Assembly (NCBI GenBank): GCA_964609135.1 | Contig: CAZSQQ010000002.1 | Span: 13,349 to 77,348, forward strand | Direction of reading: 5' to 3' | DNA: 64,000 nt | Source: an uncultured Candidatus Saccharibacteria bacterium | GTDB lineage: Bacteria; Patescibacteriota; Minisyncoccia; UBA6257; Colwellbacteraceae | Shown here: in pieces, positions 43,497 to 55,349 of the stretch | Position numbering within the stretch: position 1 is the stretch's first letter | How the letters are laid out: every line of letters starts with the position of its first letter | The notes under the pieces: model-generated | What the model was told of the DNA's origin: nothing | Seen by the model: only the letters and a program-made list of their open reading frames with translations | Databases searched by the model: none | Made by a program: the position numbers and the translations under genes

Positions 43497-43521
43497 CGAG
43501 GGCAGAGTGTATAAATTATAA

Positions 43522-44607
43522 ATAGGGAATCACTATAGAAGCACAGAAGGGGAAAAAGTTGCGGACAATGATACTTATACGACAGGTGCCAGCCAGCAGG
43601 TTCTCTCGGGGGCTACCCTGCCCGCGGGGTACAGGGCGGCTGTAAATGGCGCTGATTGCAACGATACCAACAACACCCTCTGGCAAAATCTGACTGGCTA
43701 TGCCGATGCCGATCTTGATACCTTTACGACCGGAGCAGGGGTGCAAGTCTGTTCTGGAGCGGCTCTGCCTTCAGGGTATAGAGCGGCTGTGAATGGGGCT
43801 GATTGCAATGACGCCAATGGCCTTATCTGGAGAAACAGGTATCGGGATGCCGACGCTGATACGTTTGGCGCGGGCGCTCTGGTCTGTGTTGGCAATGACG
43901 TTGGTTATGTTGATAACGCCAGTGATTGCAACGACGCCGATGTGAACAAGTGGCAGAATCTGACGGGCTATACCGATGCCGACAGTGACACCTTTACCAC
44001 AGGAGGAGGCGTGACAGTCTGTTCAGGAGCCTCTTTGCCTTCAGGATACAGATCAGCCGTGAATGGGGCTGATTGCAATGACGGGAACGCTTCCGTCTGG
44101 CAAAATCTTACCGGCTATACCGATTCCGATGCCGATGGTTATGGTTCATCAGGTCCCGGCAGTGTGTGTTCCGGAGCCAGTCTTCCGGGAGGCTATGTAT
44201 CTAACAACAGTGATTGTTATGATTCAAATGCTAATGCCCGTCCCGGACAGGGTAGCTTTTTTACTACCAATAGGGGTGACGGCAGTTTTGATTATGATTG
44301 TAATAGTGCCATTGCATATGACCAGCCGTACTATGACGACGTAGCCAATTTTACAATATCTCACTTTGATACTGGGCCATATGGCACTGTTTGCGTTACT
44401 GGCAGTACGGACAATTATAATCAAGTGACCAGTGCCTCTTTTTGCGGTACTTCGCATGAGAACTCCGTAGTTGCAGGTGGAACTCCATGTATTAGCTGCT
44501 CTACATCGAATTATCCTAATACTACCTGCTCAGCACCGGCTGGCGTATGCGGATACACTCAATTTTTCGGCTGTATACACAACTTCATGACCATAAGCTG
44601 TCATTAA
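43522..44607 (+). pseudogene. 5'-truncated MopE-type Cys-rich repeat protein (silent cassette / partial paralog of 44702..46189)
   Basis: Open frame from 43522 with no ATG/GTG/TTG before GTG 43741; no signal peptide; repeats of CSGASLPSGY..GADCND.N...WQNLTGYTDAD.DTYTTG; diverged C-terminal ~100 aa. Confidence 0.45.
43561..43700. repeat. IR-left: 140 bp perfectly identical in inverted orientation to 45567..45706
   Basis: Base-by-base comparison of both copies; identity begins and ends abruptly. Confidence 0.85.
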
Positions 44608-44630: not shown

Positions 44631-44676
44631 TACTAAAGGTTTGCCCAGTGGTTAACCACTGGGCAAACCTTTAGTA
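44631..44676. repeat. 46-bp perfect palindrome (21-bp arms around TTAA; GTTAAC core) between the convergent MopE-like genes
   Basis: TACTAAAGGTTTGCCCAGTGG-TTAA-CCACTGGGCAAACCTTTAGTA. Confidence 0.85.
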
Positions 44677-44701: not shown

Positions 44702-46189
44702 TCAGTGGCAAATCCAGGTCATCGTGGAGAGGACGTACCATCGCGTGATACTGCACCCTGGGTCGGTGTAGCCGCTGGGATTGCAAACACTCCTGGTTGA
44801 CCCGCACTCAGCGTTAGTGGCGGTCGTTCTTACCGTACCTAAGCTACATGACGGTGAGGTCTGGCCACATACACTATAGGCATCCCTTGCATAACAGGGA
44901 CCATTAGGTGCCGCGTCGCATGGTGGTCCGTTAGGATCAAGCTCGTTAACACCGCTACAATTGTAGTCAAAACTGCCATCGCCTCTGTTAGAACTATAAT
45001 AGGCGGTCTGTCCGGGCTTGGCATTGGCATTACTATCATAGCAATCGGCGCCTGAACCGGCGGTAGAAAGATAGGGCGAGGGTAGTGATGCGCCCGAACA
45101 AACAGTGTAGGGTCCAGTAGTATAAGCATCACCATCGGCATCGAGATAGCCGGTCAGGTTTTGCCAGACAGTGGCGTTCGCGTCATTGCAATCTGGGCCG
45201 TTTGCATTGGCCGTGTAACCTGATGGCAAAGAAGCCCCAGAGCAAATGGATTGGGCGGTTGAATTCGCTCTAACGCCATCGTTATCAGCATCAGTATAGC
45301 CGGTAAGGTTCTGCCAAACGGAGGCGTTCCCGTCATTGCAGTCAGTCGAATTATCAACATAACCGGCGTCATTACCTACACAGGTGGCTGAAGATACTCC
45401 ATAACCATCTCCATCTGCATCGCGGTATCTGTTTCTCCAGATAGCGCCATTGGCATCATTGCAATCGGTGGCGGTAGCTGAAGCCCTATACCCGGACGGC
45501 AAGGAGGCACCTGAACAAACTGACTGGGCACTACCAATGGTATAGGTATCACCGTCAGCATCCGTGTAGCCAGTCAGATTTTGCCAGAGGGTGTTGTTGG
45601 TATCGTTGCAATCAGCGCCATTTACAGCCGCCCTGTACCCCGCGGGCAGGGTAGCCCCCGAGAGAACCTGCTGGCTGGCACCTGTCGTATAAGTATCATT
45701 GTCCGCGTCCGCGTAGCCGGTAAGATATTGCCATTTGGTGGAATCGGTTGCGGCGGCGTCAGCTGATGTTGTAGAGGTCATAACATTTCTCCTTCTGCCA
45801 GATGTAGGAGCTGTGTCTTGAGCGTATTGAGTAAGAGAATCCGCATATCCATCGCCGTCGGTATCAACCATCCAAAGATTGGTTTGCTTAAGCTGACCGG
45901 TAGAATTTATGGCAATGGAACCGGTGACGGTAATGGTTTGACCGGAATTCCAGGCAACAGTCTGGCCGGCATTGATTGTCAAAGTTTGACTCAAGGCTAC
46001 AGTCAAGTCGCCGTTATCAACTCCGTCAACGGTGTTCGGGAAGGTGCAGCTCGAACTAATTGTGAGGGCGCCACCGGCGGAGGGAGAACAGTTTACGGCG
46101 AGCGCCGCCCCGGGGGCTAAAAAGTACAAAGCCGCCGCTATGGGCAGACCAAGTTTTATAAAAGATATTTTATTAATTCCTGATTTCAT
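44702..46189 (-). CDS. secreted MopE-type Cys-rich putative metal-binding repeat protein (full-length, signal peptide)
   Basis: Start at Met28 (46189) gives signal peptide MKSGINKISFIKLGLPIAAALYFLAPGAALA; about 6 repeats of DADGDGY/DxDxDxY + DCND.N pattern (MopE/PF11617-like). Confidence 0.6.
   Translation of the reverse strand: MKSGINKISFIKLGLPIAAALYFLAPGAALAVNCSPSAGGALTISSSCTFPNTVDGVDNGDLTVALSQTLTINAGQTVAWNSGQTITVTGSIAINSTGQLKQTNLWMVDTDGDGYADSLTQYAQDTAPTSGRRRNVMTSTTSADAAATDSTKWQYLTGYADADNDTYTTGASQQVLSGATLPAGYRAAVNGADCNDTNNTLWQNLTGYTDADGDTYTIGSAQSVCSGASLPSGYRASATATDCNDANGAIWRNRYRDADGDGYGVSSATCVGNDAGYVDNSTDCNDGNASVWQNLTGYTDADNDGVRANSTAQSICSGASLPSGYTANANGPDCNDANATVWQNLTGYLDADGDAYTTGPYTVCSGASLPSPYLSTAGSGADCYDSNANAKPGQTAYYSSNRGDGSFDYNCSGVNELDPNGPPCDAAPNGPCYARDAYSVCGQTSPSCSLGTVRTTATNAECGSTRSVCNPSGYTDPGCSITRWYVLSTMTWICH
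45567..45706. repeat. IR-right: inverted copy of 43561..43700 (140/140 identical)
   Basis: See IR-left. Confidence 0.85.
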
Positions 46190-46213
46190 AGTTCGATGTG
46201 ACTCACCATAAAT
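46190..46213 (-). repeat. conserved junction element copy F (..AATTTATGGTGAGTCACATCGAACT-ATG)
   Basis: Abuts start codon of MopE-like gene; mini-ORF MVSHIEL* with TGA overlapping ATG. Confidence 0.6.
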
Positions 46214-46221
46214 TTGCTTTC

Positions 46222-46716
46222 TTATTTTACAACAATAGTCCCGATAGCGACTCCGGCGGCATATTTCCAAGTACCTTTCTTAGTGATTCTCATTATTTTA
46301 AACTCGCCCGGAGATATCAAACCGGCGTTCAACTCTTCATTAGATCCGTCGCCTGATGGCGGATCGGAATATACTCTAATTAGCTGACTCGATTTGTTAA
46401 TAATTTTAATCCACTGACCGCTCTTAACGTTATCTGATTTAATCTCTTCGGGTTTAAAAGTAAAACTGACATTTTGCGGCGATAGCGTTGCCCCGTCATA
46501 GGCTATGGTTGCTACTTTGTTGTAGCCGGTATCGGGCGGTTCTTTGGGAGCCGCAGGATTGCTTCCAATAACCTCTCCAGCTACAGGCGATTTAGAATTA
46601 ATATACGGCGAAACAAATTTGAATAAGCTGTCTTTATAGAAATAGAGAAGTACCACAAGCAACAACGCTAAAACCAAGGCAATTTTCGAAATCATCTTTT
46701 TGGTTCTAATTTTCAT
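46222..46716 (-). CDS. secreted hypothetical protein with C-terminal cupredoxin-like beta-sandwich (related to 17215..18619 pair)
   Basis: Signal anchor; C-terminus ...GEFKIMRITKKGTWKYAAGVAIGTIVVK resembles ...GSWKYHDHLNPSKAGTVVVE. Confidence 0.45.
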   Translation of the reverse strand: MKIRTKKMISKIALVLALLLVVLLYFYKDSLFKFVSPYINSKSPVAGEVIGSNPAAPKEPPDTGYNKVATIAYDGATLSPQNVSFTFKPEEIKSDNVKSGQWIKIINKSSQLIRVYSDPPSGDGSNEELNAGLISPGEFKIMRITKKGTWKYAAGVAIGTIVVK

Positions 46717-46740
46717 GGTTCGACGCGGCTCACCATAAAT
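46717..46740 (-). repeat. conserved junction element copy E (TAA-TTTATGGTGAGCCGCGTCGAACC-ATG)
   Basis: Fills the entire 23-nt gap between two genes; mini-ORF MVSRVEP*. Confidence 0.6.
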
Positions 46741-47315
46741 TATCTAAAATTCAAATCTATATGAGAGCTGTAATTAGCCGACTTAGCCTCAAGTATGGCC
46801 GTATATATTTTATCGTGGGTGTCGTTTATTTTCCAGCTTCCGCCCCAAACTCCGTCTTCCCGTGCGCCAGATAGGAGTTTCAGATTATGGCTAACGGTTT
46901 TGGCGTCTCCTTGTGTCTTAAGGACGACTGATTCTATCGCTTCCGGAGCTTTTACCTTAACCGTAACTCTCTGCTCCTTGCCAACACTGCTGTGGAGCGG
47001 ATCAAAGACCGCTTCGGTAAAAGTCGGTATTTCTCTGGTTTGAATATTGTAGGTTTCTTTGGTATTGAAAGGCAGTTTTAAGTTAGAATCAGAGCTTTTT
47101 GTAGTGGAAGGGAGGGGCTGATTCTTGCCTCCATCAATGGTTCGATACAACTCACCATAAGAAGAAAATATGAACGACGCAAGAAACAGCAAGCCAAGGA
47201 CCGTCGCCAACGTCTTAGCGCTGTTATCTAGACTTAAGCCTTTATTTAGTCGGGACAATAAACCCTTGGACATTTTCATCGCCAATCGCGCTATTGCTCC
47301 AACTTTGATAATCAA
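46740..47315 (-). CDS. hypothetical membrane-anchored or secreted protein
   Basis: 191-aa ORF (start may be Met13/Met15); contains junction element copy G inside its coding region just after the TM. Confidence 0.4.
   Translation of the reverse strand: MIIKVGAIARLAMKMSKGLLSRLNKGLSLDNSAKTLATVLGLLFLASFIFSSYGELYRTIDGGKNQPLPSTTKSSDSNLKLPFNTKETYNIQTREIPTFTEAVFDPLHSSVGKEQRVTVKVKAPEAIESVVLKTQGDAKTVSHNLKLLSGAREDGVWGGSWKINDTHDKIYTAILEAKSANYSSHIDLNFR
47139..47160 (-). repeat. conserved junction element copy G (TTATGGTGAGTTGTATCGAACC), intragenic
   Basis: Encodes SSYGELYRTIDGG in ORF 46740..47315. Confidence 0.55.
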
Positions 47316-48314: not shown

Positions 48315-49703
48315 CTACGGGCTCCAGTTAACTATGACATCGTCAACTACCGGAAGTCCGCTGGAAGAGGAAGCAACCTGCATCACCTTATAACTCACCG
48401 TCCCACAGGTAGAGGTGTTGGAGCAGTTGAAGCTTATCCAGCCCAAAGCGTCATTCCAGCCCCAGCCGGAGAAGTCCCCGGTCGTGGTATTCAACAACAC
48501 CCTGTAATCCGACGTAGCGCAGGTATTGCCGATAACGCTATTGTTGCAATTGAAGCTTATCCAGCCAACGGCATCGTTCCAGCCCCAGCCGGCAAGATTG
48601 CCGGCGCCGTCATTGGTAACGTTGAAGTTGCTGGTACTGCAGATATTGCCATTGGGGGAAGTGGCGCAGTCAAAGGCTATGTAAGAACCGGCGAAGCTCT
48701 CCCAGACGGCATAACCCTGAATGAGACTGGGGGTTATGTTAACGGTCCCCGGCGAGAAGAAGTTCATCCAGCCGAAGGAATCGTTCCAGGCCCATTTGTT
48801 TACGGAGTCGATGCCGGTCGAGGGAAGAGTATAGATGCCATCTAAGAAAACCTTATATCTATAGTAGCGCTTATTGTTGTGATAAATGCCCGCGATCTGA
48901 ATGGGGCTATTGGGACCGCTCGGGCTGTAATAAGTTGCCGATGATCCGTCCGACCCCAAAAAGGCGCCGTCACCGGCAGTCTTACTGCCTCCCCAGCCGA
49001 CACCCGCAGCACAGCCTGGAGCGTCGGTTGCGCCATTGGAACAATTGGCAGTTGCCAGTTGAAACTTAACCGCTGAATCGGTGGGCAGTGAACCCTGCCA
49101 GAGAAAGCTGTTAAAAGAAACTCCGTTAGAGTAGCCGGTGTCAAAAGTGCTGGAGATTAAGTTCCCGGCAACAGGCCCGGAGATATTTTGGCTCACCTTA
49201 TAACTCACCGTCCCACAGGTAGAGGTGTTGGAGCAGTTGAAGCTTATCCAGCCCAAAGCGTCATTCCAGCCCCAGCCGGAGAAGTCCCCGGTCGTGGTAT
49301 TCAACAACACCCTGTAATCCGACGTAGCGCAGGTATTGCCGATAACGCTATTGTTGCAATTGAAGCTTATCCAGCCAACGGCATCGTTCCAGCCCCAGCC
49401 GGCAAGATTGCCGGCGCCGTCATTGGTAACGTTGAAGTTGCTGGTACTGCAGATATTGCCATTGGGGGAAGTGGCGCAGTCAAAGGCTATGTAAGAACCG
49501 GCGAAGCTCTCCCAGACGGCATAACCCTGAATGAGACTGGGGGTTATGTTAACGGTCCCCGGCGAGAAGAAGTTCATCCAGCCGAAGGAATCGTTCCAGG
49601 CCCATTTGTTGGTGGAATTAATGTTGGTGGCGGCAGAAGCAATTTCCGGAAAACCAAATGACAAAACCACAATGACCAATAAGATTGAATTAAAAATTTT
49701 CAT
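48315..49703 (-). CDS. secreted Trp/Cys-rich repeat protein (W.WND..GW..F modules) carrying a duplicated 139-aa block
   Basis: Signal peptide MKIFNSILLVIVVLSFGFPEIASA; repeats GWGWNDAVGWISFNC... Confidence 0.55.
   Translation of the reverse strand: MKIFNSILLVIVVLSFGFPEIASAATNINSTNKWAWNDSFGWMNFFSPGTVNITPSLIQGYAVWESFAGSYIAFDCATSPNGNICSTSNFNVTNDGAGNLAGWGWNDAVGWISFNCNNSVIGNTCATSDYRVLLNTTTGDFSGWGWNDALGWISFNCSNTSTCGTVSYKVSQNISGPVAGNLISSTFDTGYSNGVSFNSFLWQGSLPTDSAVKFQLATANCSNGATDAPGCAAGVGWGGSKTAGDGAFLGSDGSSATYYSPSGPNSPIQIAGIYHNNKRYYRYKVFLDGIYTLPSTGIDSVNKWAWNDSFGWMNFFSPGTVNITPSLIQGYAVWESFAGSYIAFDCATSPNGNICSTSNFNVTNDGAGNLAGWGWNDAVGWISFNCNNSVIGNTCATSDYRVLLNTTTGDFSGWGWNDALGWISFNCSNTSTCGTVSYKVMQVASSSSGLPVVDDVIVNWSP
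48383..48800. repeat. 418-bp direct repeat, copy 1 (100% identical to 49193..49610)
   Basis: Line-by-line comparison, offset 810 bp. Confidence 0.9.
49193..49610. repeat. 418-bp direct repeat, copy 2
   Basis: See copy 1. Confidence 0.9.
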
Positions 49704-49726
49704 AGTTCAATGCGATTCACTACAAG
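49704..49726 (-). repeat. conserved junction element copy B (TGA-CTTGTAGTGAATCGCATTGAACT-ATG)
   Basis: Fills the 23-nt gap; frame VVNRIEL* with TGA overlapping ATG. Confidence 0.55.
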
Positions 49727-51049
49727 TCATGGCACTTGAATTTGGATAGACCCGGGGGTGGTTGACGCATCGATCTTGGTCTGCGAAGAATAACCGGTGT
49801 TAGGACTTGTAACCGGCCCTTCAGCGCCAGACCCTCCATTCCAGTTGCTGAATTGGGTAATTTCGTTTTTGGAGCGAGTCAAAAATTCAGAAGCTTGGAT
49901 TTGCGGAGACCCCCCGAACTGACTCCACGAAACCGTAGCCGTGACTTTCTGCGTTGAGGGATCTTCCGTGCCGCCAGTCGCTACGATTGATCCGCCGGAA
50001 TCACGATTAACGTTTTCAACCGACAAATAGCGGGTGAAGGGACGGGAATTATAGGTTTGAGTGACCTCGGCCGCCGAGACCGCCCGCTTGTAAATTTTAA
50101 CGTCGTCTATCCTGTGACTCGCGGACGTTCCATCGGCGTCCCCCATCCGAACAGATCCGGCAGTATAAAGCGTTTGGCTCGCGAGAGCCGAGGTTGTCGT
50201 ACATTGAACTCCGTCCAAATAAACCTTAACAGTTGTGCCGTCATAGGTTCCAAGCAAGTGATGCCAGGCATTTAAAGTAAACGACGGGGCGCAACCCGAG
50301 GCGTTAAATTGGCTCACTCCATTAAAAACTCCGAAGAGGGCGTTGCCGCCGGAATCGGCAAATAAATTCCAGCCGCCGGCGGCGGAGAAATTATTGGCCA
50401 CCAGATCATCAAAGTTAATATGACCGGTCAAATAAACCCAGGCCGAAACAGTTATGGCTGTGGTTGGGAACCCGCTCGGGGGCGCAATCGTGACATACTG
50501 GCCGGTCCCGCTAAGAGTTAGGCAGTCGCTCACGAAACAGGAGACTGTTCTCACGGGACTGCCAGTCAAAGTCCCGTTATTGCCAACACCGGAGGAATCA
50601 TAGGCATTGACCCCTGAAGCCTCATCCAGTTTCCATTGACCAACCAAGCCGTCCCTAATCTCATTTTCAGGAACCCCCTCTTTACCGGTTACGACGGTGA
50701 AATCGGCGCCCGTTGCATTCACAAGATAATAATTGGTAGAAGGGCCCTTGCTAGCCACATTATAAAGATTGGTCCAACCGGCCTGGGAAAAAGACCGCGC
50801 GTTATCAATGAGCTCTTGACTTAACAGATTGGCGGTTTGCACGGTGCGATTTTGGGCGTTGATGCGAAGCGTCAAAACTATCGCTCCCGCCGCCGAGCCG
50901 ATAATCAAGGTTCCAATGGCCACAGCCACGAGCACCTCAACCATTGATTGACCCCTTCGATGTGACTCACTCTTCGACTCTCGCTCAGAGTGCCCTGAGC
51001 TTGTCGAATGGGCAGGGCGGGCCCTCCTCTTGTTAAAACTGGTAGGCAT
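49727..51049 (-). CDS. pilin-like protein with LamG/concanavalin-like (LamG_3) domain; start ambiguous (51049 or 50944)
   Basis: ...RRG-QSMVEVLVAVAIGTLIIG hydrophobic helix with Glu+5, then LVGQWKLDEASGVNAYDSSGVGNNGTL LamG_3 signature. Confidence 0.55.
   Translation of the reverse strand: MPTSFNKRRARPAHSTSSGHSERESKSESHRRGQSMVEVLVAVAIGTLIIGSAAGAIVLTLRINAQNRTVQTANLLSQELIDNARSFSQAGWTNLYNVASKGPSTNYYLVNATGADFTVVTGKEGVPENEIRDGLVGQWKLDEASGVNAYDSSGVGNNGTLTGSPVRTVSCFVSDCLTLSGTGQYVTIAPPSGFPTTAITVSAWVYLTGHINFDDLVANNFSAAGGWNLFADSGGNALFGVFNGVSQFNASGCAPSFTLNAWHHLLGTYDGTTVKVYLDGVQCTTTSALASQTLYTAGSVRMGDADGTSASHRIDDVKIYKRAVSAAEVTQTYNSRPFTRYLSVENVNRDSGGSIVATGGTEDPSTQKVTATVSWSQFGGSPQIQASEFLTRSKNEITQFSNWNGGSGAEGPVTSPNTGYSSQTKIDASTTPGSIQIQVP
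50956..50972 (-). repeat. conserved junction element copy H (GTGAGTCACATCGAAGG), 10 nt upstream of internal ATG-GTT-GAG (MVEV...)
   Basis: 14/16 identical to copy F. Confidence 0.5.
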
Positions 51050-51078
51050 TTCCTATTTAAGTATAAATCACTTGTTGT

Positions 51079-51102
51079 GGTTCGACATAGCTCACCGTAA
51101 AT
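51079..51102 (-). repeat. conserved junction element copy A (TTTACGGTGAGCTATGTCGAACC) overlapping stop of 51092..52219
   Basis: Same orientation as other copies. Confidence 0.55.
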
Positions 51103-52219
51103 TGAAATTATAAAGAGTGGTGACCTCTGAAGCCGAGAGAGCCCGGCTATAGACACGAACTTCATCAATCGAACCGCTTAGAAATCCGGAAGCGAGGTCG
51201 CTTTTCACGGCCATAGTAAAGGGCGCGGCATTCACGTTAACCGAGGTTATGGTTGTGGCCGCGGAATTCTGAAGAGACCCGTCAATATAAATCCTTGCCG
51301 CCACCCCAGACTCAAAAACGCCAACCAAATGATGGAAAGTGCCGTCAGCTAAATTCGATGTGCCGGATACACTCACATTGGTTGTGCCATTAGAAACATA
51401 GAATTGTCCAAATCCAGAAGTTGCCGCAATATTCAGATTGTAAGCGATGGAGGCGTCTAGATCAGTATTGCGCTTGGCAATAATGTAAGCTAAAGCTGTC
51501 GAGGAAGTTTTAATCCAAGCGCTAAGAGAAAAGGAGCTCCCAACATTTAAACTTGAACCATTGCCGGCAGTGACATAATTAGAAGCGCCGTTAAAACTTA
51601 AACAGTTGCCGCTCTTGCAAGAGACTCCCGCAACCCATGTTGGCGCGGCGGCCGAAAAAGTTCCGCTATTGCCGTTCCCGGAATTGTCATTAGCCGTCGT
51701 GCCGGTATTTTCATCTAAATCCCAGTAGCCGACCAGGTCTTTTATGAGGTCGTAGTCAATCTTGCCGGACGTATTCACGGACACGAGACCAATCTGATTC
51801 GATAAAACCGATGAACTTATAACAATATTTGTACTTATATTCGGAATTCCGGTGGCCTTATCAAAAATCACGTCCCTGGAAGTATTGTTAACGGGATCGG
51901 TGAAATCAAGCTGGGGGCTAAGTGAAATTTTGGCGAGCACGGTGCCCGCCGCATAACTTGCGCCGCTCCAAATTTCGTAATAATCGTTGTCCGCTCCGGT
52001 CGGATTCCAGAATCTGATTCCCCACTGCAAACCGTTTTCTTGCGCCCTTGACCTCTGGGCGGTTTGCCTCACGTCGCTTAGAACCCTGAAAGTCATGCTG
52101 TTTAAAACCTGCTTTCCGCGAATGCCAAAATATCCCGGGGCCACAACGGCCGCGAGGAATGCCGTAACGGCCAAGACTATCAAGACTTCAACCAAAGTGA
52201 ACCCCTTCCTAGATGACAT
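51092..52219 (-). CDS. type IV pilin fused to LamG-like domain (class III signal peptide MSSRKG|FTLVEVL)
   Basis: Canonical prepilin cleavage motif G|FTLxE; LVGYWDLDENTGTTANDNSGNGNSGTF LamG_3 signature. Confidence 0.7.
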   Translation of the reverse strand: MSSRKGFTLVEVLIVLAVTAFLAAVVAPGYFGIRGKQVLNSMTFRVLSDVRQTAQRSRAQENGLQWGIRFWNPTGADNDYYEIWSGASYAAGTVLAKISLSPQLDFTDPVNNTSRDVIFDKATGIPNISTNIVISSSVLSNQIGLVSVNTSGKIDYDLIKDLVGYWDLDENTGTTANDNSGNGNSGTFSAAAPTWVAGVSCKSGNCLSFNGASNYVTAGNGSSLNVGSSFSLSAWIKTSSTALAYIIAKRNTDLDASIAYNLNIAATSGFGQFYVSNGTTNVSVSGTSNLADGTFHHLVGVFESGVAARIYIDGSLQNSAATTITSVNVNAAPFTMAVKSDLASGFLSGSIDEVRVYSRALSASEVTTLYNFNLR

Positions 52220-52426: not shown

Positions 52427-53638
52427 TTAAACCTTTCCCACCAGTTGATAGACGGGAATGATTATGGCGAGCGCGATCACTCCCACAATCATGCCGATAA
52501 TGAGGAGGAGAACCGGTTCCAAGAACGATATTAAAATCTTGAGAGACGAATCAATTTCAGACTCATAGAACTCGGACAGGGTCTCGAGGATGCTCTCCAA
52601 GTGACCGGATTTTTCGGAAATGGCGATTAGATTCACAACCACTCTCGGAAAATATGTCTCCCGGTGAAAAGCTTCACCGATTGTCAAACCCTTGGCGATG
52701 CCCTCCCTGGAAATTCTAATCAGAGTCGCTTCCATGTCCGGATTGCCGACGGTTTTGGCGGTTATCTCCATCGCTTCCAGGATCGGCATCCCCGACCGCA
52801 AAAGCGAAGAGAGGGTCGAGGCAAATCTCTGCAAGGCGATTCTATAAATAATTTCGCTAACCACCGGCAATCTCACCAAAGTTCTTCTTAAAATCCTTTG
52901 CCCAAGAAAATTTTTGAAAAAGAAAAACCATGAGCCAAAAACGGCGGAGACGAGAAACAACAATACCGCGAAAGCGTTATGGCCCAAAAAGAGCCCGATA
53001 GAAAAAACAATCTTGGAAAAAAGCGGCGGCTCAATGCCGGCCGAAAGGAAGGTTTCGGCTATCCGAGGCAACGCGAAGGTGATCATAAGAAACAGGATCA
53101 CGAGTGACAGGAAAACAAGAACTACCGGATAAATAAGAGCGCTCTTAATTTTGTTCCTTAACTGTTGTTCTTTCTCCAAGCCCCGACTCAAGTCTTCAAA
53201 AATCTGATCCAGATTGCCCGAGACCTCTCCGGCACGAATGAGATTGGTAAAAACCGCCGAAAAGTACTTGGGGTATTTCTCGAAAGTGGTATAGAAAGGC
53301 TGTCCCCGGCTTAAGGCGTCCTTGATTTCCAAGAGAAGAGTTTTAACCGACGGTTTCTCAAAGTCGGCGATTAAAATATCTATGGCGCTGAATAGATCGG
53401 TCCCGACTCTAAGCATCAAAGCCAGGTACTTGGTTAAGAATACCTTGTCGGCCGTGGTAATGGATTCTGAAAAGACGCCCTTAACCCCCCTGGTTTCAAC
53501 CGCCCCCAAAGATTTTAGGGAAACCGGACGAAGACCCTGCTTCCCCATCCACTCCAAGACTTCGCTTGGGGCTCCGGCTTCCAAGTCGCCTTCGACGGCG
53601 TTATTTTTTGCGTCGGTGGCGATATAATGAAATCTCAT
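52427..53638 (-). CDS. pilC: type IV pilus inner-membrane platform protein PilC (GspF family)
   Basis: Two T2SS-F repeats, 3 TM, about 400 aa. Confidence 0.8.
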   Translation of the reverse strand: MRFHYIATDAKNNAVEGDLEAGAPSEVLEWMGKQGLRPVSLKSLGAVETRGVKGVFSESITTADKVFLTKYLALMLRVGTDLFSAIDILIADFEKPSVKTLLLEIKDALSRGQPFYTTFEKYPKYFSAVFTNLIRAGEVSGNLDQIFEDLSRGLEKEQQLRNKIKSALIYPVVLVFLSLVILFLMITFALPRIAETFLSAGIEPPLFSKIVFSIGLFLGHNAFAVLLFLVSAVFGSWFFFFKNFLGQRILRRTLVRLPVVSEIIYRIALQRFASTLSSLLRSGMPILEAMEITAKTVGNPDMEATLIRISREGIAKGLTIGEAFHRETYFPRVVVNLIAISEKSGHLESILETLSEFYESEIDSSLKILISFLEPVLLLIIGMIVGVIALAIIIPVYQLVGKV

Positions 53639-53639
53639 T

Positions 53640-55349
53640 TTACTCTCTAATGACTCGGAATATTTCTTCGATGGTGGTAATTCCCTGTTCGACTTTTCTT
53701 AAACCGTCTTCAAACATACTTATCATACCCTCTTTTTTAGCTAAAGCCCTAAGGGCGTCGAGCGAAAAGTCGGGACTCACAATTAACTTCCTGACTTCTT
53801 CGGTAATTTCCAGCACCTCGAAAATACCTACCCGTCCCTGATAGCCGCTCTCATTATCGGCCGCACAGCCCTTGCCTTTGTATAACAGCTTGGGAAGCCT
53901 GTACTCATTCGGGTCAAATCCCAATTCGGATAGCTGTTTCCTCACGGCCGCCTCGGTTTGGGCGTCGAGCTCGTAAGACTCGATACAATCAAGATGAATC
54001 TTTCTTACCAGCCTTTGAGACAAAACGGCATTTAAGACGGCAGCCACCAGGAATTGGGGGACTTTCATATCCATAAGACGGGGAATGGCCGTCGGAGCGT
54101 CGTTGGTGTGGAGCGAAGACAAGACCAAATGCCCCGTCAAGGCTGACTGCACGGCAATGCCGGCGGTGTCCTCGTCGCGAATTTCTCCAACCATGATGAT
54201 ATTGGGATCCTGTCTCAAAATAGACTTGAGACCGGTCGCAAAAGTCACGCCAGCGACGGGATTAATTTGGGTTTGATTGATAAACTTGATATCGTATTCA
54301 ATTGGATCCTCAACGGTCACAATATTCACTTGAGGGTGATTCAGGGAGGCGAGGACCGAATAGAGGGTGGTGGTTTTGCCGGCTCCGGTCGGACCGCAGA
54401 CCAAAACCATTCCGTAGCTTTTTTTGACATTCTCTTCCAAAAGTTTCACGGTGTCCTCAAACATGCCCAATTCCGCAAAAGATAAGGGGCGGCTCACGGC
54501 TGTGAGTAACCTCATCTCCACCTTCTCTCCATAGAAGGTGGGCATGATGGCGACTCTAACGTCAATCGTCTCCGTGCCGACTTGATAGCGGAAACGGCCG
54601 TCTTGCGGCTTGGAGTGCTCGTCAATCTTCAAGCCCGAGAGAAGTTTGATCCTGGCCGTGACCGCCGGATGAATTTCTTTGGGGAGTCTGAACATTTCAT
54701 AGAGAATGCCGTCAACCCTGTAGCGGACGAGAATTGAGTCCTCGAAAATCTCCATATGGACGTCCGATGACCTCAAGGACATCGCGTAAGACAAGAGATT
54801 GTCAACGGTCGCGATGATTGGGACATCGGTCGCCGCCGCCTCTCCTTTGGCGCGACTCTCAAGCGATTTTCTCACGCTCTCTTCGATCGTTTCCTGAAAA
54901 CTCTTCGCTGAAACTTTGCCGTAAAGCGAATAGCCTTTATTCAAATCCCCCTCGCTCGCGATATAGGGCTTGATTCGGACTTTCAAATAACTCTCCAAGA
55001 ATTCTATGGTTAAGAGGTTCGAGGGATCCTCCATGGCGGCTCCGAGCACACCGGGAGATTCCTCACGAAATATTATTGTTCTTTTATCTCTGGCTATATT
55101 TTCGGGCAGGAGTTTCAGGACGTTCGCGTCTATCTCGCCGCCCTCGATCCTCGAGAGAGGCACGCTTAAATAGAAAGAGAGAGCGTTAATGTAGTAATCC
55201 TCGGTAATGATGTGCCGAGAAATCAAGGTATCGGCCAAACCTTGCCCCAGGCGAGCGGCTTCCGAGGCCACCTCATCAAAAACCTCCGGAGCGATAAGTT
55301 GATCTTGAGTAAGAATCTCTTTCAATTTTTGCGGAGGAATCTGGAGCAT
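53640..55349 (-). CDS. pilB: type IV pilus assembly ATPase PilB (GspE family)
   Basis: Walker A GPTGAGKTTTLY, Asp box, His box, Walker B of secretion ATPases. Confidence 0.85.
   Translation of the reverse strand: MLQIPPQKLKEILTQDQLIAPEVFDEVASEAARLGQGLADTLISRHIITEDYYINALSFYLSVPLSRIEGGEIDANVLKLLPENIARDKRTIIFREESPGVLGAAMEDPSNLLTIEFLESYLKVRIKPYIASEGDLNKGYSLYGKVSAKSFQETIEESVRKSLESRAKGEAAATDVPIIATVDNLLSYAMSLRSSDVHMEIFEDSILVRYRVDGILYEMFRLPKEIHPAVTARIKLLSGLKIDEHSKPQDGRFRYQVGTETIDVRVAIMPTFYGEKVEMRLLTAVSRPLSFAELGMFEDTVKLLEENVKKSYGMVLVCGPTGAGKTTTLYSVLASLNHPQVNIVTVEDPIEYDIKFINQTQINPVAGVTFATGLKSILRQDPNIIMVGEIRDEDTAGIAVQSALTGHLVLSSLHTNDAPTAIPRLMDMKVPQFLVAAVLNAVLSQRLVRKIHLDCIESYELDAQTEAAVRKQLSELGFDPNEYRLPKLLYKGKGCAADNESGYQGRVGIFEVLEITEEVRKLIVSPDFSLDALRALAKKEGMISMFEDGLRKVEQGITTIEEIFRVIRE

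Follow-up and report, generated by a model that had tools for sequence, protein, structure and literature searches.

Why does a single gene carry the same 418 base pairs twice, without a single difference between the copies? The question is raised by the stretch of DNA analysed here (hereafter the window, 64 kb in length), in which both copies lie inside one open reading frame encoding 462 amino acids. Direct comparison finds the copies equal at 418 of 418 positions, and the offset of 810 bp between them corresponds to 270 codons, in frame. Specifically, copy 1 opens at N32 and copy 2 at N302, each on the first base of a codon, and each encodes the same 139 residues (NKWAWNDSFGWMNFF...TVSYKV). 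The edges of the perfect match are sharp, such that zero bases of extension are possible on either side, and the flanks compared at the 810-bp offset agree at 4-13 of every 30 bases, which is the chance level. Since a repeat search finds this pair to be the sole long perfect repeat in the 64-kb window, a chance match is excluded. The copies are separated by 392 bp of unique sequence in a non-tandem arrangement, and each contains three 36-nt sub-repeats (family D2) that are 83-100% alike and encode WxWND..GW..F motifs. The identical, in-frame module pair in this gene is real. The coordinates, the perfect identity and the reading frame reported in the initial annotation are confirmed in full, as is its description of a duplicated Trp/Cys-rich module of 139 amino acids.

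That annotation also described the product as secreted, and a Sec-type signal peptide, judged by eye, is indeed present at its N-terminus (Table 1). The cleavage end of this peptide reads ASA↓A, homologues have a common A↓ATNI(D/S) junction, and residues 2-16 of the region form a helix in the AlphaFold model. The full-length model has a pLDDT of 83.8. Within it, domain B together with the tail strand stands at about 96, mean values per 10-residue block reach 89-97 in the body of domain B and fall below 50 in the linkers, and module A modelled alone reaches 89.4. Module A is predicted to form a small beta-barrel with three WxWND..GW hairpins, and domain B is likewise predicted to adopt a jelly-roll. 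The A module has three conserved Cys pairs and is dense in N-x-S/T sequons. A Foldseek search of the full-length model against the PDB returned nothing below E = 0.05.

Table 1. Positions in the window of the repeat pair, the domains of the encoded protein, differences from the second assembly, and neighbouring features.
Feature	Position	Strand	Basis or remark
Gene for secreted protein of 462 aa: signal peptide-A-B-A-last strand of B	48315..49703	-	ORF, translation, homologues
Sec-type signal peptide, residues 1-24, MKIFNSILLVIVVLSFGFPEIASA then A	49632..49703	-	read from sequence
Module A1 (repeat copy 1): residues 32-170 and one further base	49193..49610	-	
Main body of domain B, residues 171-290, predicted jelly-roll-type beta-sandwich	48834..49192	-	
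Linker from B to second A copy, residues 291-301	48801..48833	-	pLDDT < 50 at residues 293-298; final ~30 nt with diverged homology to sequence 5' of copy 1
Module A2 (repeat copy 2): residues 302-440 and one further base; nested within predicted last hairpin loop of B	48383..48800	-	single-module homologues without insert here
Tail, residues 441-462: short linker plus predicted last beta-strand of B	48318..48382	-	
Predicted last beta-strand of B in tail, residues 452-461	48321-48350	-	pLDDT 95-96; aligns to C-terminus of single-module homologues
Tract of copy 1 with five differences from GCA_016187165.1	49227..49326	-	49326, 49323, 49270, 49236, 49227
65 bp of copy 2 missing in JACPKH010000011.1	48660..48724	-	gene frameshifted there
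Two genes for minor pilins with LamG domains, immediately upstream (51092-52219, 49727-51049)	49727..52219	-	Laminin_G_3, E 5e-27 and 9e-26, plus N_methyl
PilC platform protein	52427-53638	-	T2SSF, 1.5e-54
PilB assembly ATPase	53640-55349	-	T2SSE, 2e-114; TIGR02538, 1.7e-148
Exact core of start-codon element	46191-46207, 46718-46734, 47140-47156, 51080-51096		degenerate copy about 49705-49721

Alignment with homologues locates the second copy within the protein. Single-module homologues run through the corresponding point without an insert (...RYFRYRVFL-ERDAAATTP-VVQDIIINWSP), and the 462-residue protein consists of the signal peptide, A, B (...RYYRYKVFLDG), a linker, A, a second linker and VVDDVIVNWSP. 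The NWSP at the C-terminal end is near-invariant across homologues. The alignment thus shows the second A copy to be placed in the loop before what is predicted to be the last beta-strand of the C-terminal B domain. From the confidence values, the alignment and the fold topology, we infer that the strand in the tail contacts B and that the termini of module A lie close together.

The homologue search yields 1332 proteins, and every one with a named source comes from Patescibacteria (Colwellbacteria, Paceibacterota, Liptonbacteria and Wolfebacteria). Most are 290-340 amino acids long and consist of a signal peptide, A and B, with B ending in ...HNNKRYFRYRVFL-(about 8 residues)-VVQDIIINWSP. The best match to the 462-residue protein among GTDB species representatives is 54%. 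Pfam and NCBIfam models give no match to this protein, a Pfam scan of 91 family members gives a match for none (0/91), and the family profile finds no match among PDB sequences. No relevant paper emerged when the literature was searched for WAWND, GWAWND and GWISF.

Domain arrangements were surveyed in the best 120 of the 1332 homologues, and among these the A module occurs in several settings. Two tandem A modules precede B in P0031, P0116 and P0118; a second A is nested after the FQIASN strand in P0004, P0005, P0008 and others; and P0003 has three modules, the extra one nested after ...IMWQSSS. Placement of A in the last loop of B is seen among these 120 only in the 462-residue protein and in P0001. 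Across the remaining 18 multi-module homologues, copies within one protein are 44-84% identical at the protein level. The module copies of three multi-module homologues compared as DNA are 63-89% identical, and no other perfect intragenic repeat was found among them. The 462-residue protein is alone among the multi-module proteins compared in having copies that are 100% identical.

If the copies are identical, is the duplication itself young? The closest full-length relative, P0001 (57% identity, 100% coverage), also has the A-B-A-tail order, with the insert in the same loop and linkers of similar length, and its two copies share 65.7% identity at the protein level and about 70% at the DNA level. 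The B domain nearest to that of the 462-residue protein is the one in P0001 (73%, versus at most 69% in single-module proteins). In a neighbour-joining tree, which carries no support values, the modules of these two proteins form one clade in which they group within each protein, whereas those of the group nested at the FQIASN site cluster by position instead. Grouping within proteins is equally expected from one ancestral insertion followed by concerted evolution and from two independent insertions into the same loop. Beyond the 3' edge of the perfect tract there is no residual match between the copies. Beyond its 5' edge, 16 of 30 nucleotides match in register (P about 0.002; TNINST versus TGIDSV), and this remnant, although short (~30 nt), would point to an older and longer duplication with a young identical core.

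We hypothesize, with a probability of roughly 55%, that the 418 bp of perfect identity are the product of recent intragenic gene conversion acting on an older nested domain duplication. An old duplication of the Trp-rich A module of ~140 residues would have set its second copy in the last loop of B. A conversion tract within the gene would then have rendered the 418 bp identical, in a concerted evolution of the two modules. The tract would have run from copy 2 to copy 1, the upstream copy of a sister strain having kept five differences. The repeat would in that case be a by-product of module duplication and homogenisation, rather than a device for length variation.

The sister strain is represented by the metagenome-assembled genome GCA_016187165.1, annotated as Candidatus Colwellbacteria, which contributes two fragments to a protein cluster that also holds an identical protein of 462 residues, P0122. 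Its contig JACPKH010000027.1 corresponds to window positions 59703-49470 and ends inside copy 1. A second contig, JACPKH010000011.1, begins at 49467 and continues through the rest of copy 1, B and copy 2, and beyond the gap in copy 2 (Table 1) it agrees with the window at 100% identity over 10.1 kb. Both assemblies include all three junctions (A-to-B, B-to-A and A-to-tail), and so at least two copies are real. In module coordinates, the site at which the contigs break in copy 1 coincides with that of the gap in copy 2, at about 142 and beside a CCCCCA motif, and the gap junction (L001 positions 742-743; 48725 joined to 48659) shows only 2 bp of microhomology. Public sequencing runs that contain this organism exist, PilC being found in Logan contigs of SRR12113420 and of other runs. 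The JGI metagenomes do not contain a 30-mer chosen at the 3' end of B, just before copy 2.

Over about 20.3 kb of flank (~20,300 bases), the two assemblies differ at 3 sites, all of them synonymous changes in ClpB. The part of copy 1 covered by GCA_016187165.1 (275 bp) shows five differences, which fall within 100 bp, and this density (5/275 bp) is about 100 times that of the flank. Four of the five are synonymous, and the fifth, G145A, gives the family-consensus Ala; conservation of the Ala in the family's GWAWND motif is 90% or higher. At all five sites, copy 1 of the window has the base of copy 2. Thus, in this comparison of two short-read assemblies, a substitution cluster lies in one copy of the relative while the window carries the bases of its other copy. 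Such a clustered difference at five sites would be the classical footprint of a conversion tract from copy 2 into copy 1 or, alternatively, the trace of one consensus written into both copies.

The second of these possibilities deserves particular care. If the real copies differed by about 1%, an assembly or polishing error might have entered one consensus in both places, an explanation that we regard as somewhat unlikely. A length of 418 bp exceeds that of typical short reads, and metagenome assemblers deliberately collapse near-identical variants. Both the window and GCA_016187165.1 are short-read metagenome assemblies, the latter being itself faulty at this locus. The warning in the initial annotation that a perfect repeat of this size is a classic site of misassembly proved apt: in the one other public assembly of the species, a contig break falls within the repeat, 65 bp are missing from the other copy, and the copies differ from each other at five sites. 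The perfect identity, established by comparison of assembled sequence only, could therefore come from the assembler or from polishing. Likewise, the five variants of GCA_016187165.1 could stem from a co-assembled strain, rather than from copy 1 of a single genome.

The coordinates argue against such an error. Site 49227, the variable site closest to the boundary, lies 34 nt from position 49192, where the unique sequence of B begins, so that reads or k-mers exceeding 35 nt would keep the copy 1 variant linked to B, and a simple collapse of the assembly graph is hard to produce. For an artefact, k would have to be at most 34, or multi-mapped reads used in polishing would have to act in the same direction at all five sites. 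Moreover, the three differences in ClpB indicate that the two assemblies sample slightly different populations, and a true strain difference is therefore plausible. A literature search on gene conversion versus collapsed repeats in metagenome-assembled genomes returned nothing specific. In either case, this locus is a place where the public assemblies of the species disagree, which matters for strain typing, structure and expression. It also offers a small, concrete case of two near-identical genomes that apparently differ by a single conversion tract.

Perfect identity would be the simplest outcome of a very recent new duplication, in which A was copied into the last loop of B independently of the P0001 lineage, with no gene conversion involved. 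Insertion does recur, as A is found at several different sites in the family, and the modules of the 462-residue protein and of P0001 cluster within each protein, as such an event would have it. However, the insert occupies the same loop as in P0001 and is bordered by similar linkers, and diverged homology just outside the perfect tract is not expected after a fresh copy. The five clustered differences of the sister strain, at ~100 times the flank density, likewise exceed what point mutation since a recent duplication could explain. A fresh duplication thus appears quite improbable. The initial annotation had left the choice between a very recent duplication and ongoing gene conversion, a pair of readings that is supported with a lean towards conversion by the 66% identity of the P0001 copies, the diverged homology in the flank and the five clustered differences in one copy.

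Could the repeat instead serve as a recombination substrate, generating length or phase variants through loss or gain of a 270-residue unit? The offset of 810 bp is in frame, an identity of 418 bp is ample for RecA-type recombination, and the frameshift at the 65-bp gap of GCA_016187165.1 can be read as an OFF variant. Nevertheless, we consider this reading very improbable. The unit consists of A plus B without its last strand, such that deletion would leave a signal peptide, A and an orphan strand, whereas amplification would add an incomplete B, and neither product resembles any family member seen. The gap also ends at the same module position as the contig break, which suggests an artefact, and it is more likely to have arisen in scaffolding or curation than through a real frameshifting deletion. 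The earlier proposal that recombination between the copies yields useful length variants is accordingly unsupported, since the 270-residue unit is not self-contained and the second A sits inside B. The population variants with one or three modules for which it had suggested looking are not on record in a collection of ~15 billion proteins, although just two assemblies of the species exist. A tandem-repeat surface protein of variable length was rejected on similar grounds, with copies 810 bp apart, a unit that splits B, and no copy-number variants on record.

There is hardly any chance that a diversity-generating retroelement accounts for the pair, with one copy as its template repeat and the other as its variable repeat, since, although such elements are common in CPR genomes and two repeats in or near a surface-protein gene of such a genome bear a resemblance to them, both copies are coding and identical, the differences in the sister strain (T/C, G/C, G/C, C/T and C/T) are not adenine-specific for either copy or strand, and no YxDD reverse-transcriptase motif is present in window ORFs of 200 aa or more.

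What, then, might a protein with two identical modules do? Directly upstream of its gene lie two minor pilin genes with LamG (concanavalin-like lectin) domains, and PilC, PilB, RNase Y and a small pilin are also encoded upstream on the minus strand; four ORFs without a family match follow downstream. The order pilin-PilB-PilC-LamG pilin(s)-target is kept in at least 10 other, unrelated Patescibacteria loci. By gene context, the 462-residue protein is a component of a type IV pilus operon, here of a Candidatus Colwellbacteria-like member of the Patescibacteria. Assignment as a pilin or minor pilin was rejected: N_methyl and TIGR02532 are absent, both upstream genes match, and the N-terminus is a classical signal peptide. 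The PilY1/PilC tip adhesin family was likewise rejected, with Pfam matches in 0/91 members and predicted folds that are a small beta-barrel and a jelly-roll.

Saccharibacteria bind their hosts by means of type IV pili and their lectin-like minor pilins (PMC11623550). On the strength of operon position, predicted fold and analogy with these pili, the 462-residue protein is probably a secreted, non-pilin, pilus-associated binding protein with two equivalent lobes, for attachment to host cells or surfaces. Compared with P0001, this protein shows 55-62% identity in its A modules against 73% in domain B, and hence the modules evolve faster than the scaffold domain. A ligand-contacting role of A would predict such a difference in rate. 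As to how ultrasmall CPR bacteria find and hold their hosts, type IV pili are the leading candidates. To our knowledge, almost nothing is known about the non-pilin proteins of CPR type IV pilus operons. The more than 1,300 proteins detected here form a conserved family located right after lectin-like minor pilins, with modules that are duplicated, nested and apparently homogenised.

A broader reading of these arrangements is that the Trp-rich barrel serves as a reusable cassette, occurring as tandem N-terminal copies and in at least three different loops of B, and that in some lineages it is homogenised by ongoing gene conversion to give pilus-associated adhesins with two or three identical lobes. 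We advance this idea tentatively and consider it rather doubtful. If true, then binding specificity could change in all identical A lobes at once. The family is new to description, and the proposed mechanism, concerted evolution of surface-protein repeats, is already known; the setting is new, as it combines a nested, non-tandem arrangement with a recurrently inserted module in an undescribed family.

Several other features were observed near the operon. The public MAG annotation of the second LamG pilin, at 49727-51049 (-), gives a protein of 405 aa from MVEVLV, which appears too short. A reading of 440 aa includes a prepilin motif (...RRG↓QSMVE) with a long Ser/Arg-rich leader, and places N_methyl at residues 30-53. 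Several genes of the pilus operon, among them that of the 462-residue protein, have a conserved element of ~30 nt either immediately ahead of the start codon or overlapping it (Table 1); in gene orientation the element reads TTTATGGTGAGnnnnnTCGAACyATGAAA. Its core, GGTGAnnnnnnTCGAAC, has four exact matches and one match with one mismatch elsewhere, versus 1.0 expected. In three copies of the element a mini-ORF of seven codons (M-V-S-x-x-E-x-stop) can be made out, with a stop that overlaps the ATG following it (ATGA). The element's arms, ATGGT and ACCAT, might base-pair across the start codon. The element has no Rfam match, and an Rfam search of the whole window finds one tRNA and nothing else.

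The row of pilus genes is closed by a perfect hairpin with a 20-bp stem at 44631-44676, located between two convergent genes and probably a bidirectional terminator. In a scan for promoters and terminators, the counts are at chance level and this hairpin is the sole strong feature. The last gene of the operon, at 44702-46270 (-), encodes a DADxDxY/CND-repeat protein of 522 aa. Convergent to it, at about 43520-44607 (+), is a leaderless, 5'-truncated paralogue whose frame opens right after a stop codon, without a start codon or signal peptide. The pair shares a 167-nt inverted repeat (43561-43727/45540-45706) of 95% identity, beside 115 nt at 73%. This arrangement looks like a silent cassette and an expressed gene with a conversion patch, and the truncated paralogue with its 95% patch hints that conversion from donor cassettes may be wider at the locus.

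Of known folds, module A can be likened to the soluble 8-stranded barrels of the surface lipoproteins TbpB, HpuA, NHBA and fHbp and to barrels of the YceI/avidin type, a resemblance of fold class only, with identity of at most 11%. None of these barrels has a counterpart to the three WxWND..GW hairpins or the three Cys pairs of A. Domain B can be likened to the ephrin-receptor ligand-binding domain, discoidin, CBM32 and phage tail nozzle domains, with no sequence family match. Unlike other jelly-roll or galactose-binding-like domains, domain B of this family carries whole A modules in its loops.

In its genomic setting, the 462-residue protein joins PilY1 of Pseudomonas, PilC of Neisseria, and PilX1 and PilX2 of the Saccharibacteria strain TM7x (PMC11623550), all of which are encoded with minor pilins in a type IV pilus operon. 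Its Sec-type signal and its predicted all-beta, lectin-like domains invite this comparison and make host binding plausible. Nevertheless, it has no sequence or Pfam relationship to these proteins and no beta-propeller, and it is without the N-terminal pilin helix of PilX1 and PilX2.

In its repeats, the gene most closely recalls the alpha C/Rib family of streptococci, an example of concerted evolution in which a surface-protein gene likewise contains long, in-frame, identical DNA repeats. The alpha C/Rib repeats form tandem arrays, whereas here two non-adjacent copies occur, with most of another domain between them and one of them nested in that domain, such that unequal recombination would disrupt a domain instead of altering the number of repeats. 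Despite this difference, the pattern that we propose for the pilus-associated gene is the one known from the streptococcal proteins, namely homogenisation of the copies inside a lineage alongside divergence between orthologues.
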